This document shows, in pieces, positions 1 to 6,000 of a stretch of DNA of 27,334 nt (position 1 is its first letter; the number at the start of each line of letters is the position of its first letter). A program made the position numbers. This DNA comes from Escherichia coli (GTDB lineage Bacteria > Pseudomonadota > Gammaproteobacteria > Enterobacterales > Enterobacteriaceae). Where the stretch lies: assembly GCF_003334315.1 (NCBI RefSeq), contig NZ_QOWR01000063.1. One strand, given 5' to 3'.

Positions 1-3000
1 CTAGTCTAAAAACTAGTATTAAGACTATCACTAACTTAAGTGATACCAACTGTCTGGAGATTCAGGGGGCCAGTCTATGATTCTAGGTAATGATTACGTT
101 GATTTAGCTCCGCTTTTCCAGGCACACAGCACTAGAAACTATCTGCTTTCTACTCTGGATTTTACGGATTCTGTAGGGGTTACATCTCATAAAGTAGCTG
201 TTTCACAGCTTGTCGAAAGCAACGAATCTCTCTTTAACAAAGAGACAAGCCGTTTTAGTTCTGAACACAACGTTACTAAGCGAGAACAAGGTAAAGAATG
301 GCTGATCGAAATCCCGTATTTTCTTCGTGAAGATGTGATCCGTCCTTCTGATGTTCAAGGCAAACGTAAGCCAGGCACTGATTTCCAGGAAACACTCACT
401 GATATCTATGCGGAATATATCGCTAAACACAATGTTGCATTCCAGCGTACTAAAGAGAGCGTGTTGGCTGCTTCCCTGTTTAGTGGTCGCACTTATACCC
501 CGAAAACTGATGATGTTCTTATCGAGTGGGGCAAGCTGTTTAACGTATCAGCTATGAAAGCCACTGTTAACGCCTCCGCCACTGACACAATGACCGTTTT
601 CAAGCAATTTGACCAGCTTGCTACGGATATTATGGAGAAAGCACAAAGCCAGGCGGCTGCTGTAGAGCGTATCGTAGTATTCTGTAAGCCTGCGGCATTC
701 AACGCTATTCGTTACAGTGTTGGTATGGTCAATGCTTTCCAATATGCAAGCCCTGTAGACGATGCCAACGTGGTGTTTAATGTGCGTTCCCTGCTACCAG
801 GTGTAACTACTTTCACCATTCCAGGAACTAACATTGACCTGATCAAAGTGACTGATCCGCTACACCTTGCACATATGACTTCTGATGCGGTTGCGGTTCC
901 GAAGTTTGCTAAAGGCTCTAACGTATATCAGAACATCTACGGGGCGGCTTCCAGCACCTTTGAACTGATTAATGCCGCTCCTGCTGAGGTGTATAGCTAC
1001 AGCTATGAGGGTTCTCGCGGCGACGCAGTGCACGTAGTGACCGAGAATAGCCAGATGGTTGTTAACCACGGTGTAGGCTTCTCCGTTCAAATCACTGTTA
1101 AATAATATTTTAACGTGTAATAGAGGCGTGGCGTGTATTCACGCTTCGCCTTTTTTTATTTATTTTTAAATTTTGAGAGGTGATTAAAATATGGAAGTGA
1201 TTTTGAAATCAAAAAATGGTGTACACGTACATTTAGATGCTAATGATTCTAGAGGCTTGTTAAATCTGAAATATCTATGTTCTCTTTTAGATGTTCCATA
1301 TGAAGGAGTAAAAGCCCGTATGTTCAGATTAAACGAGAGCATTGATCAGGCTCTACACCATTTCTTAAGTAAAGAAGGTGATAAAAATGATTAATAAGGG
1401 GATTTTAAATGTTAGAAATTAACACTTCTAAAATTAAGAACACAGTAACATTTAGTGTAGATAAAGACAGCTTGAAAAAAGCGAAAGACTCTATTACAAG
1501 CCTAAAAGAATTCGTAGAGAACATCAAGCCAGCTAAATTAAGGTTTGATAATGTCACTAAAGGCTATAAGAAAGCACAAAGTGAAGTAGACAAGATTACC
1601 CAGCAAAAAGCCAAAACAGAAAAGCAAAATCAAAGAGCACAAGCTGCCGCAGCAAGAGCACAGGCAAGGCAACAGCAACAAATAGCAGCACGTAAGGAGA
1701 AAGCTGAACTAAAGCTTTTAGACGTTGGATCAAGCATTAGTGCAATGCACCGTCTCTCTGTAGCTGAACAATATAAAGCTATTGCACAGGCTAGAGAGAT
1801 AGCAAAACAATATGAGCAAGGGGCTATCTCGCTTGCACGTATGAATAGCCAGATGAAACGCCTACAACAACAACAACGTAAAATTAATGGCAACAGAAAA
1901 ACTCAATTAGCCCCCGTTAAGGGAGGATCAGGGAATTCCGCCACGATGGGCGCTCTGTTATTTGGAGGCGCTACGGCTGCTGCTGGCGTGATGGCTGTTA
2001 GTAAAACCTCTGAATTTATGGCTAACAGCTTTGCTAACGCTGAAACCCAAGGGGAGCTAATTCAACGTGCCAAGCTGGGCGGTGTAGACGTTAACCAGAT
2101 GTATAATATTACAGAATGGGCGTATAGAAACGGCGTTGACTCTATGATGGGTGATCAAGGGGCTAGAAAATACCTGGATCAGATGAAAGATGTTAGGGAA
2201 CGTGCCGCAAAATCCTACAGTGAAGCTGAATTGGTGAAAGACAAGAAAACCGGAAAATCTGAATGGAAAGGCGGTGATAACGGTATTAATGAACTTCTAA
2301 ACATCGGTGTTATTAACAAGAGCGACCTTAAAAAATTTGCTGATAATCCAGCCGGATTAATTTCTAAGGCTGTTAATGGAATGATGAAAAAAGGGTTTTC
2401 AGACTCCCAAATTGGACAACGTTTAGAAGACCTGGGCGATGATTTGATGCTTACGTCAAAATATTGGCAACGTTCCGTTAAAGATGTACAAGAAAGTATT
2501 AATCAGCAAAAAGCCTCTGGAAAATGGCTAACAGAAACACAGCAAGAATCTATTGTTAAATTCAGAGAGCTAAACAGACAGCTTTCACAGCTTTCTGATG
2601 CAAGACAAGTAGCATTCGTAGACGGCTTTATGAAATCTCTCGATCCGAAAGTAACGGAAGAGTTTATGAAAAACCTTTCTAATCTCACTCCGTATTTTAC
2701 GAAGCTGGGAGAAGCTACAGGAAGTCTCTTTGAAGCTATTATGAAGATTGTAAACTGGTTTAATCGTAATGATGATAAGACAGATGCTATTCAGAAAAAT
2801 ATGGGTGATGCACCGCCACTATCTAACGATGGAATGAAACAGAATCTTTCTAACCTCGTTCCTGATAAATATAAAGGCGCTGGCACTGCAACAACTACAC
2901 CTGATAATAGTCATTCTCTCTTTAACACGATTAAGGGATTGCTTTTCGATGATAATGCTTCTTCTGTGTCAGATGTAAAAATGTCAGTCAGCGAAGCACC

Positions 3001-6000
3001 GATAACCAATCTCAAACAGGGGGCTTTAAATAATCTTGCAATGACAACTCCGGCTTATAATTTATCTCCTGTATTCAATCTGAATCCTACATTTGAAGTG
3101 GTAACGGAGGTTCCGCTTACTATTAATTCTGACACATCCAGATTAAGCGATTATGTGGATTTTACAGCGAGAGCAAGTCGGGATAGCTTCTTGAAATCAT
3201 TAACATTAACCAGCTTATCAGGACAATCTAACGGCGGGTAATTCCCGCCATAACATTACAAGGAAATTATTATTATGGCGACCGCCGGGATTTTAACCAT
3301 ACGTGCAGCAAATACTCCAGAACAACACGTTCAGGCTGTTTACAAAGCAGAACAAGATATAAACTCTACAAAAAATACAAATAACTCTGCCTCTACTGTG
3401 AAAGGGGGGAATGGATTTGCTATTGTTACCAGTGGGCTGGCATCTTCTGGAAACGATGTTTATGAAAATTATATGGCACTGGCCTTTGACAGTGTAGATG
3501 ATGTGAACGTGAGACGTTCGGCAGATGTTACAAGCTACCCCGTAGAAAATGGTGCTACTGTATCGGATCACGTTCAAATTAAAAACAATAAGTTTTCTCT
3601 TAAAGGAAGGATCACTGAAACACCGATTAAAAGCGATCCTGGCTTGTTAAAGAGTGCAGGGGTGAACGGGAACAGAAGATCATTAGCTATCGACTACCTG
3701 AATCAGATTATGGACAGTAGACAGCCTTTTCTTCTTGTTACAGAAAATAAAACTTTTGAGAACGTTGTTTTAACAGGCATCGAATACACAGAAGAGGCAA
3801 GCGAATCCCTAGTATTTGATCTTAGCTTTGAGCAAATAAGATTAGTGTCTTATGGCACAGTAAACACTGTAGCTATCAAAACACAGCCATCTAAGAACAT
3901 TGGGGCTAATATGAAAAAACGTGTTAACACTGAAAAATCAAGTAGTGAAGGTGAAGACACTATAACTCCTGCCTTTAAACAGGAATAGCCGTAAACGCCT
4001 CTAAAACGCTCTGTAACGATGTAATTATAAAAGAGGCTACCAATCTATGTTGAAGCCTCTTTATTGCGTCTATGGCGTTGTTTTACGCCTTAAATTTGAT
4101 TTTTTATTGATTGATAAGCCTTTCTCTATTTCAGGGTAGCGTAGAAGCTCAATATAGTTTTTAAGCTCTACTGGAGAAGCTGCATTCTTGCTATATGTGC
4201 GGAATGTTTCTGTATTGCCGCGTGTATGGCCCAGGAGAAGGGCGATCCTGTCTTCTGGAATTTGATTTCGATCAAGAAGCTGTGCTACTCCGTGTCTCAG
4301 AGAATGAAACACCTTCCTTTCTGTTCCCTTTTCCCCTAAAGCCTTTCGTTTAGCCCTGGTAAATCTCTGCGTGTGCCACGTGGAACGTTTACCATCAGCA
4401 CGCTCTGTAATGCTGGCGTGATAGAACAAAAAGCCATTATGAGGCTTTTCACGCAGCGACAACACCAACGGAGTGATAAGGCTATGTACAGGCACAACAC
4501 GCGCCGCAGCTTTCGTTTTTCCCTGTGTGATTTCAAAACACAGCACACCTTCGATCTCTTTCACATCGTCTATTGTGAGACTTGCTATCTCATTGATCCG
4601 CATCCCTGTATAAGCACCGATAAGACACAAAGCTATCATTTCTTTGTTTTCTGCTGAATTACCGGAAAATACTTGCAACACTTGCAATAGCTCTTTGTTA
4701 GAAAATGCCTCGTAGCTCTCTCTACTTTGTGCCACATCAAGCCTATGCCCTCGCCAGGGGGAGAGCGCCCTTTCTGGCGCATCGTGGTAACGTGATGAAG
4801 CTAACTCCCATAGCTGGGCCATTGGGCTGATATAATTTGCAATTGATTGTTGTGAAAGGGTTTTTTGCATGTGTTCAATCCAGCCTGTAACAGTGGTGCG
4901 GCTCACATCTTGCAATGCAATATCAGGCTTTTTACGGTAGGAGAGAAACATCTCTACCGCTTTTCTTGCCTTAGCTAAAGTGGCTGGCTTCTTCTTCGTG
5001 CTGTTAATTGTCAGGTAGATTTCAAGAATTTTAAGCAATGACGGACACGAAGACGCTGTATCTTGCATTCTGGTAGCTGTTTTGGCGTATTTAGCCTTAC
5101 TGCGTAACAGTTCCAGCGTGTTCTCTATTGTGCTGTTTACAGGGGCGACACTCTCCCGTAAGCAATGGTATTCATCTGCAATCTGATCACGCTTTCTACG
5201 TGCAACACGAAGGTTACTTGTATGCAGACTCCTGACAAACGTCCTTTTTCCTTCAAAAAAGGGCTGCATATACACAGGCAGCGTGATCCTCAAATAGTAG
5301 TTACCGTAAGAATCACAGATTATGTATTGATTGGGCTTGTATCTCATAAACTCCCCGGCTAAAGTGTCGGAGCGTTTGTAATGTGAAAATTGATTGTAAC
5401 GCATAGAAAATGATAATTTTTTCTATAAGATTCAATCAATTAGTAATGGTCGTAGGTGATGGCATTAACACGAGATTAATCGAGTGTTTTACTCCTATTA
5501 TCGGCACCATTAAAATCAAAGAGTTACCCCATATTTAAATACACCACGTTTCCTCCTGTGCCGTATTTGTGCCATTGTAACCTTGGCAATTCATCAAAAT
5601 ACTGTTCTGACATCAGGCAGTGCAGGTGCAGACATTTAAGCCAATTGCTGCCGCCATTCTTTGACGTAGTCAATCAGGGCGCGGAGCTTTGGTGCAATAT
5701 TGCGACGCTGTGGGAAATACAGATAGAAGCCCGGAAATTGTGGAAGAAAGTCATCAAGCAGCGATACAAGCTTACCGCTTTCAATATATGGCCTGAAAGT
5801 TTCCTGAGTGGCAATTGTTATTCCTCCGCCGGCAAGAGCCAGCCTCAACATCAGACGCAGATCATTAGTCGTAATCTGCGGTTCAATCGCAAGGTCGAAA
5901 GTTCTCCCGTTTTCTTCAAATGGCCAGCGATAAGGCGCAACCTCCGGGGACTGACGCCAGCCGATACACTTATGGGTATTTCCCCCGGAGGCGAGAAAGC

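Follow-up and report, generated by a model that had tools for sequence, protein, structure and literature searches.

The DNA analyzed here, referred to as the window, is a stretch of 27,334 nt from Escherichia coli (assembly GCF_003334315.1, contig NZ_QOWR01000063.1), the first part of which belongs to a chromosomal island. The subject of this work is the island gene at 1409..3241 on the + strand, the product of which, p610, is 610 residues long and is identified below as a homologue of phage tail tape-measure proteins (TMPs). The open reading frame (ORF) starts with the ATG at 1409 and ends with the stop codon at 3239-3241, exactly as given in a preliminary description of this DNA. The ribosome-binding site AAGGGG is located 8 nt upstream of the ATG, and a 14-nt spacer separates the p610 start from the stop codon of a 67-residue ORF.

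Identification of p610 as a tape-measure protein

The search of Pfam and NCBIfam gave no p610 match at all. The PHROG 16051 profile, described as "tail length tape measure protein", matches residues 118-610 with E = 1.1e-54, and the TMP of phage phiWec188 (651 residues) is 28.5% identical to residues 1-608 in blastp (E = 2e-59), the two proteins being colinear from the first to the last residue. The protein also matches chain V of PDB entry 21vq, which is Phi92_gp134 (phmmer, E = 3e-39); gp134 and gp135 of phage phi92 are both chains of this solved structure. Among 50,697 phage records searched by tblastn, 134 genomes matched p610. The matches covering at least half of the protein all come from lytic myoviruses of ~150 kb that belong to the Stephanstirmvirinae (Phapecoctavirus and Justusliebigvirus), and in those genomes the matching gene carries the annotation of a tape measure protein. 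The homology with phi92 gp134 and the other TMPs of this group, namely those of PaulScherrer/Bas60 and BME3 (Justusliebigvirus) and of phiWec188 (Phapecoctavirus), extends over the whole length of p610, with an overall identity of 28-35%. A phage tape-measure or ejection protein was one of the two functions considered in the preliminary description, and the profile match, the end-to-end colinearity with the phi92-like TMPs and the 21vq structure all speak for it. By homology, p610 is established as a tail TMP of the phi92 gp134 family. On these grounds, the name of tape-measure protein can take the place of the "hypothetical protein" annotation that this gene has in thousands of genomes, even if the island should be inert.

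The p610 family is limited to 73 clusters among 1.84 billion representative proteins. Its 34 near-full-length representatives, which are those included in the alignment, are all 584-715 residues long, and such a narrow range is expected of a length-determining protein. The length rule holds for the phage homologue: 659 residues multiplied by 0.15 nm give 99 nm, compared with 105 +/- 9 nm measured for the tail of phage BME3 (PMC12210895). A clear tape-measure profile match and the characteristic relation between protein length and tail length were the two findings that the preliminary description had set against its more exotic proposal, a membrane-targeting effector, and both were obtained, the latter for the phage homologue.

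Conserved and variable regions of p610

The similarity between p610 and the phage TMPs is unevenly distributed. The N-terminal motif (residues 1-30; 1409..1498, +) is 80% identical to the PaulScherrer TMP, and at the DNA level the 5′ end of the gene (1410-1507, 98 nt) shows 84.7% nucleotide identity to the phage, the DNA upstream being unrelated. The C-terminal motif (residues 556-610; 3074..3238, +), which comprises the last ~55 residues, is 57-67% identical to the phiWec188 TMP. The central domain (residues ~205-390; 2021..2578, +) is mostly helical, is modeled with a predicted local distance difference test score (pLDDT) of 87-97, and contains the invariant or most conserved residues of the family; within it, residues 240-345 are 40-50% identical to phage TMPs. 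Outside both ends and residues 240-345, the identity is only 7-30%. Among 120 close E. coli variants, residues 1-30 are the least variable stretch (entropy 0.002), and residues 571-600 are nearly invariant (entropy 0.005). At the DNA level, the island matches the phage only at the start of the TMP gene, at the start of the tail tube initiator gene that follows it, and in a 32-nt patch in the central domain of the TMP.

In contractile tails, as in phage T4, the C-terminus of the TMP is anchored in the complex of the hub and the tube initiator, and the N-terminus is head-proximal. Given such an orientation, the conserved ends of p610 would be the parts that need to fit phage-encoded partners. 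The features that p610 and the phi92-like TMPs have in common are the N-terminal motif, the hydrophobic segment, the central domain, the C-terminal motif and the Dit-like initiator encoded next to the TMP. Two segments located in the helical region, a G/P-rich insert of ~22 residues and a charged-helix insert of ~47 residues, are present only in the phage TMPs and absent from all island TMPs of the alignment. As a result of their absence, p610 is 41-49 residues shorter than the phage TMPs.

The N-terminal ~120 residues had been described as a coiled coil; the K/Q/A/R-rich helical region spans residues 46-166 (1544..1906, +). The composition and the helical nature were borne out, as K, R, Q, E and A account for 80% of residues 51-100, and the AlphaFold2 model, built with a 36-sequence family alignment, shows long confident helices at residues 46-111, 118-136 and 142-166 (pLDDT 79-97). 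The heptad pattern was recovered only in part. For residues 46-111, the test of heptad a/d positions was no better than shuffles, 76% of which reach the observed value, and heptad-like periodicity is found only at residues ~126-166 (0.5% of shuffles) and in residues 1-120 taken as a whole (0.8%). The N-terminal region can be regarded as helical and as coiled-coil-like only partly. The structure prediction and fold search proposed in the preliminary description yielded this helical model, for which no significant fold match was found. The S/T/N-rich low-complexity tail had been overstated: the share of these residues is mildly elevated, at 28-34% in the last ~110 residues versus 22% overall, and the last ~55 residues form the conserved motif rather than a low-complexity sequence.

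The hydrophobicity profile contains a single glycine-rich peak, as had been noticed, with a Kyte-Doolittle value of 1.6 for the 19-mer TMGALLFGGATAAAGVMAV (residues 179-197; 1943..1999, +) and values of no more than 1.0 elsewhere; the pLDDT of this Gly/Ala-rich segment is low, 30-39. The presence of one such glycine-zipper segment suggested a membrane-targeting effector of abortive infection, which would enter the inner membrane of the producing cell through this segment and collapse the membrane potential upon phage infection, and intrinsic toxicity and difficult expression have been reported for tape-measure proteins (PMC11838301, methods text). Such a function of p610 is barely conceivable. 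The segment occupies the same alignment position family-wide and is the top 19-mer in 33 of the 36 aligned members, bona fide phage TMPs included, and a segment conserved across the TMP family is no marker of a toxin. The protein is homologous over its full length to a virion protein of a solved phage structure, and it is accompanied by no sensor or partner gene typical of defense systems. In the PADLOC search, eight other island proteins had no match, and p610 had only a marginal and spurious coiled-coil match to JetC (E = 0.0077, 12 bits). Since p610 is homologous to TMPs and matches no defense model, the membrane-effector reading is unsupported.

The antisense ORF of 87 residues at 1630..1893 (-) is not a gene, and in this respect the preliminary description, which called it a repeat artifact, is followed. 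Its Cys/Ala/Leu-rich translation mirrors the GCA/CAG-rich coding sequence of the TMP, of which it is the reverse complement, and the sense frame is under purifying selection.

Neighboring island genes in the window

The gene directly 3′ of the TMP gene encodes a tail tube initiator or Dit-like protein, p237 (237 residues; 3275..3988, +), with a match to the Pfam family Dit_like (PF21821, 5.6e-29). It is 62% identical to the PaulScherrer protein bas60_0019, annotated as "tail tube initiator", and matches Phi92_gp135 (PDB 21vq_N, 2.3e-81), the "Tube initiator protein" 9cuy_K (6e-13) and the Pam3 tube initiator gp17 (1.4e-6). The 5′ end of the p237 gene shows 76% nucleotide identity to the phage gene across 325 nt. 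The phage genes of gp134 and gp135 are neighbors too, in the order seen in the island. The gap between the two island genes (window 3239-3275) is 33 nt long and is without terminator or promoter signal, and in PaulScherrer (L002:10960-11110) the TMP and tube-initiator genes have between them a terminator hairpin and a sigma-70 promoter close to the consensus (TTGACA, 17 nt, GATAAAAT). The start codon of the PaulScherrer TMP gene is TTG.

On its upstream side, the p610 gene is preceded by that of a small protein unlike the upstream proteins of the phages, and then by a capsid gene. The small protein, p67 (67 residues; 1191..1394, +), has a counterpart in every relative examined, where an ORF of 60-67 residues occupies this position. 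Its model consists of a beta-hairpin plus three short helices with a helix-turn-helix (HTH)-like look (pLDDT 69), for which no fold match was found in the PDB. The assignment of p67 as a tail assembly chaperone was rejected, as the hhalign comparison with the 75-residue upstream protein of the phage gave a probability of 0.07 and the model is unlike chaperone folds. The protein could be a DNA-binding or a packaging-redirection factor.

The capsid gene encodes a major capsid protein of 342 residues (77..1105, +), recognized by Pfam Phage_cap_E (PF03864, 7.8e-16) and PHROG 29, major head protein (1e-13). It is just ~21-24% identical to any phage capsid protein, those of the phi92-like phages included. 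A consensus scan gave a terminator-like hairpin after the capsid gene (1123..1147, +), with a 9-bp stem containing 5 GC pairs followed by TTTTTTT, as no more than a pattern match. The 120-residue protein that precedes the capsid protein in complete island copies was considered as a homologue of the phage head-decoration protein and rejected (hhalign probability 1%). The last island gene encodes a tyrosine integrase (4070..5347, -; PHROG 1 integrase, 3e-33), which has 425 residues as annotated in RefSeq relatives, with the ORF extending to 5404, and which is annotated there as a tyrosine-type recombinase/integrase. The similarity of the island to the phi92-like phages is mosaic, with protein identities of ~22% for the capsid protein, ~30% for the TMP and 53-66% for the initiator.

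Boundaries and anatomy of the island

The 3′ end of the tRNA-Thr gene thrW is the insertion point of an island, of which positions 1-5509 of the window represent the right part. The right boundary, attR (5491..5509, +), is the 19-nt sequence ACTCCTATTATCGGCACCA, identical to the 3′ end of thrW. The exact empty site is present in E. coli BL12 (L037:16274-16476), where thrW is followed directly by the sequence of window position 5510, and from this position on the window is 100% identical to strains such as BL12, in the case of BL12 over 21.8 kb. The chromosome to the right of the island contains yagP′, paoDCBA, yagU, the ecp operon and fdeC. The best match of the island part among 5426 complete E. 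coli genomes is only ~95% identical. The ORF beside attR (5636-6178, -) is a C-terminal remnant of a LysR-type regulator, a pseudogene that is without its N-terminus in all relatives examined. Since the truncation is also found at the empty site, it predates the island or is independent of it.

The complete island copies (L001, L004, L005, L006 and L007) are ~12.6 kb long and contain ~16 genes. They consist, in this order, of small ORFs, a Hin-like DNA invertase, an ORF-free region of ~2.4 kb, an O-like replication initiator, about five small proteins, the 120-residue protein, the capsid protein, p67, the TMP, the Dit-like protein and the integrase. The ORF-free region lies upstream of the first base of the window and is represented here by E. 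coli GPEC548 (L004:10431-12824), where ~2.4 kb contain no ORF longer than ~90 residues. Within it, there are seven iterons of ~23 nt (CACCCCCACAGAATTCTGTTA), several of which are spaced at 23 bp, as well as other families of repeats and, at L004:11626-11651, an AT-rich patch. The replication initiator adjoining the iterons is O-like (PHROG 270, 7.6e-11), and equivalent iteron arrays occur in the ORF-free regions of relatives (L006:7404-7505 and L039:12402-12647). The iteron-bearing region is probably the replication origin of the island.

None of the ~16 genes of the complete copies encodes a terminase, portal, protease, sheath, tube, baseplate, fiber or lysis protein. The PHROG matches of the tested island proteins are confined to the DNA invertase, replication initiator, capsid protein, TMP, tail protein and integrase, and only the capsid protein, TMP and integrase are longer than 240 residues. 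The search of a full island copy against Rfam returned tRNA only. With integration and replication functions of its own and without most of the virion genes, the island has the gene content of a satellite. The context of p610 is such a compact satellite-like island rather than a prophage tail module: the phi92-like TMPs are encoded on lytic genomes of ~150 kb, whereas p610 is encoded on a 12.6-kb chromosomal island that has no genes for a sheath, tube, chaperone or baseplate.

In E. coli O104:H4 2011C-3493 (L006:18091-29373) and strain 20KM2222 (L007:18272-29842), the island is followed in tandem by a second element. It encodes an integrase of its own together with an AlpA or HTH regulator, an Icd-like protein and a DUF927/TOPRIM primase, and its gene set is that of a P4- or PICI-type satellite. 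Given the second element at this site, thrW hosts arrays of satellites.

Distribution, selection and relatives

Of the 5426 complete E. coli genomes, 486 (9%) carry the TMP gene, always on the chromosome. The E. coli island TMP genes form two lineages that are ~72% identical at the nucleotide level, and the gene order at thrW was the same in every island locus opened, whichever of the two lineages it came from. In the six island copies compared, every gene is intact. The ratio of nonsynonymous to synonymous divergence (dN/dS), calculated by the Nei-Gojobori method across these copies with dS ranging from 0.05 up to saturation, is 0.08-0.17 for the capsid gene, 0.06-0.29 for the TMP, 0.04-0.21 for the initiator and 0.02-0.10 for the integrase, the strongest purifying selection in the operon being that on p67 (0-0.08).

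Relatives are found outside of thrW and outside of E. coli. Three assemblies (L008, L010 and L038) have homologues of 31-38% identity, arranged alike but located elsewhere in the chromosome, and a short Citrobacter contig contains the core of the 115-residue, capsid, small-ORF and TMP genes. The scan of species-representative genomes used narrow peptide patterns and found only E. coli and one Citrobacter. The Logan assembly of run SRR7500800 contains a relative of 14,065 bp (L039:1-14065), the ends of which overlap by 30 bp, and one ORF runs across the junction; together, these features indicate a circle of ~14.0 kb. This circle encodes ParA and a small tyrosine recombinase, has no large integrase, and carries the block of the capsid protein, a 60-residue protein, the TMP (599 residues) and the Dit-like protein. 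It suggests that some members of the island family are episomal.

The comparison of capsid proteins (window 77-1105, L006:12424-13455, L008:8669-9706, L010:8637-9683 and L036:2285-3322) revealed two classes in the islands, which are ~21% identical to one another and each ~22% identical to the phi92-like capsid protein. An example of the resulting mosaicism is the pair formed by the window and L006, in which the TMPs are 64% and the capsid proteins 21% identical. The distribution of the capsid classes is independent of the TMP type, and modules have therefore been shuffled among islands. Such islands are a family of compact mobile replicons. A related block, consisting of a 66-residue ORF, a 619-residue TMP-like ORF and an integrase, is located on the IncY plasmid pCP53-92k (L040:3181-6810) and on about a dozen large E. 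coli plasmids. It is cut on its upstream side by ISKpn26, as if part of a related island had landed on plasmids.

These data bear on the explanation of the island as a cryptic prophage remnant. In this scenario, the capsid protein, TMP and initiator were left behind by deletions in a temperate phi92-like prophage at thrW, and p610 is functionless. The locus, between thrW and the pao genes, corresponds to the site of the cryptic prophage CP4-6 on the K-12 map; some island copies are interrupted by insertion sequence elements, and RefSeq labels the island genes only as hypothetical or phage proteins. The explanation is nevertheless very unlikely, as the genes are intact and under purifying selection despite synonymous divergence up to saturation, and no temperate phage with these genes is present among the 50,697 phage records. 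The identical compact order is found in two deep E. coli lineages, at other sites and in other assemblies, and in the 14-kb circle, which independent deletions would not give. The recurrence of this gene order, together with the intactness of the genes, cannot be explained by independent prophage decay.

Comparison with known satellites

The closest parallel is provided by the PLE satellites of Vibrio cholerae, parasites of the lytic myovirus ICP1. They encode their own tail assembly chaperone (TAC), TMP and baseplate hub, with 20%, 20% and 41% identity to those of ICP1 (Mathur et al., preprint PMC11838301; Nature 2026, PMC12987554). The PLE TMP is 95 residues shorter, is selectively incorporated and results in tails 10 nm shorter, and deletion of the PLE tmp gene cuts transduction by 96-99.9% (PMC11838301, PMC12987554). 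Putative tmp genes have also been noted in Vibrio PLE-like elements and in some cf-PICIs (PMC12987554, Extended Data Fig. 10; Alqurainy et al. cited there).

Compared by description, the island resembles the PLEs (PLE11, PLE1 and PLE4) in what would be a small integrative satellite of a lytic myovirus, with its own shorter TMP encoded beside a baseplate-proximal protein. In both systems, the TMP has a low identity to that of the helper, or candidate helper, and the hub or initiator a higher one, with values of 20% and 41% in PLE and of 28% and 62% in the island. The systems differ in several respects. PLE uses the ICP1 capsid protein together with the PLE scaffold TcaP, whereas the island has its own capsid gene. 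The partner of the TMP is the baseplate hub BhuB in PLE and a Dit-like tube initiator in the island, and PLE has a recognizable TAC, which p67 is not. The function has been demonstrated experimentally for PLE and is a proposed one for the island. With Escherichia as the host of the island and Vibrio as that of PLE, the island is better regarded as an analogue of PLE than as a member.

The cf-PICIs are similar to the island in that they lie in enterobacterial chromosomes and encode an integrase and a capsid protein of their own, to which a predicted TMP is added in some of them. They encode a small and a large terminase, portal, protease and head-tail connectors. This packaging and capsid module is absent from the island, which falls outside the cf-PICI definition. 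The EPIP satellites of Mycolicibacterium are ~11 kb long, encode a capsid protein and a TMP, and form particles with altered tail length (bioRxiv 10.64898/2025.12.02.691453). As judged from their description, they differ from the island in being actinobacterial, in having a siphovirus helper prophage, and in encoding a serine integrase, a small terminase, a scaffold and head-tail adaptors.

The literature search revealed no satellite linked to phi92-like phages and no account of this thrW element, although such an absence is no proof of its being undescribed. The island is apparently an undescribed element family, set apart from the cf-PICIs by having no terminase, portal or protease and from PLE by carrying a capsid gene. 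At the level of the protein, p610 adds a new member to a known family, and the system presents the theme of a satellite-encoded TMP in a different host and a different element family.

Proposed function of the island TMP

The TMP homology, the anatomy of the island, its precise insertion, the purifying selection and the mosaic similarity to phages are the observations from which a function can be proposed. By analogy with PLE, we lean slightly towards p610 being an island-encoded satellite TMP, which would replace that of a helper phage in chimeric, slightly shorter tails. The helper that we infer is a phi92-like lytic myovirus, either a Justusliebigvirus or a Phapecoctavirus. Upon its infection, the operon of capsid protein, p67, TMP and initiator would be expressed, and the island TMP with its cognate tube initiator would enter the helper tail assembly instead of gp134 and gp135. 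Together with the tube initiator, the C-terminal ~55 residues of p610 may dock in the baseplate hub of the helper, with the N-terminal ~30 residues possibly engaging head-proximal partners. The helper tube and sheath would then polymerize along a TMP 41-49 residues shorter, a difference that amounts to ~6-7 nm at 0.15 nm per residue, and the tails would be ~6-8 nm shorter. Particles with such chimeric tails would carry the island DNA in capsids made of the island's own capsid protein and so transfer the island. At injection, the hydrophobic segment would act as in phage TMPs, probably by membrane insertion forming a DNA conduit.

Several points weigh against this proposal. First, the IMG/VR matches are all regions predicted in isolate genomes, with no virome contigs among them. 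Second, the island has no recognizable small terminase or packaging signal, and its capsid protein, only ~22% identical to that of the putative helper, would have to work with the helper portal, scaffold and protease. Third, p67 is not detectably a TAC, which leaves the parallel with the TAC-TMP-hub module of PLE incomplete. Fourth, the ends of the TMP are partly conserved throughout the family, and their similarity to the phages is to that extent no sign of adaptation to a particular helper. Finally, the helper is deduced from sequence similarity only, and the actual partner could be a temperate relative that has yet to be sampled.

The absence of packaging genes from the island also agrees with the main alternative function, in which the TMP and initiator only interfere with the phage. 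Acting as dominant-negative look-alikes, they would produce defective phi92-like tails and protect the population, and the island would never be packaged. The phage-like TMP ends and the initiator could compete for the phage partners, and tail assembly is a known target of defense, as in the Tai systems (PMC11364771) and PLE11 Rta. The phage TMPs evolve fast, with the two genera being 44% identical in the TMP versus 91% in the capsid protein, which fits a pressure on the TMP. Interference as the sole function is still unlikely. A decoy needs neither an integrase with intact att sites, nor an origin with an initiator, nor a capsid gene under selection; the island family moves, as seen from the circular episome and the several integration sites, and no PADLOC model is matched. 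Interference and transfer are not exclusive, and PLE does both. The Tai systems (PMC11364771) were also considered as relatives and dropped, as they are small proteins unlike tail components.

The replacement of the helper TMP by p610 has an extension to the whole element family. The island may be the founding example of a satellite family in Enterobacteriaceae, 12.6-14 kb in size, integrated or episomal, that parasitizes strictly lytic phi92-like myoviruses of ~150 kb; this broader proposal is a tentative one, which we hold to be somewhat less probable than not.

Implications and candidate helper phages

Before the PLE work of 2025-26, satellites were believed to steal whole tails, and TMP-encoding satellites have so far been documented experimentally only in Vibrio, with the addition of a preliminary mycobacterial report. 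If the proposed function is true, E. coli, the most tractable host, gains a satellite of a lytic phage that rebuilds both capsid and tail. Strains with a natural empty site are available, as are helper candidates, namely phi92 and phage Bas60 of the BASEL collection. Phapecoctavirus and Justusliebigvirus are popular candidates for therapy and biocontrol, and the island is present in about one E. coli genome in eleven. If true, the broader proposal of a satellite family would make the island the E. coli counterpart of the Vibrio PLE-ICP1 system and a hidden resistance determinant against therapeutic phages of the phi92 and phAPEC8 types in about 9% of E. coli strains.

The phage records matched by p610 include several deposited under a different host. 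The "Campylobacter phage" records MG065639, MG065645, MG065656, MG065689 and others (A150, A145, C3 and A110a) give the same matches as the Justusliebigvirus coliphages, and they are probably mislabeled or contaminant genomes.

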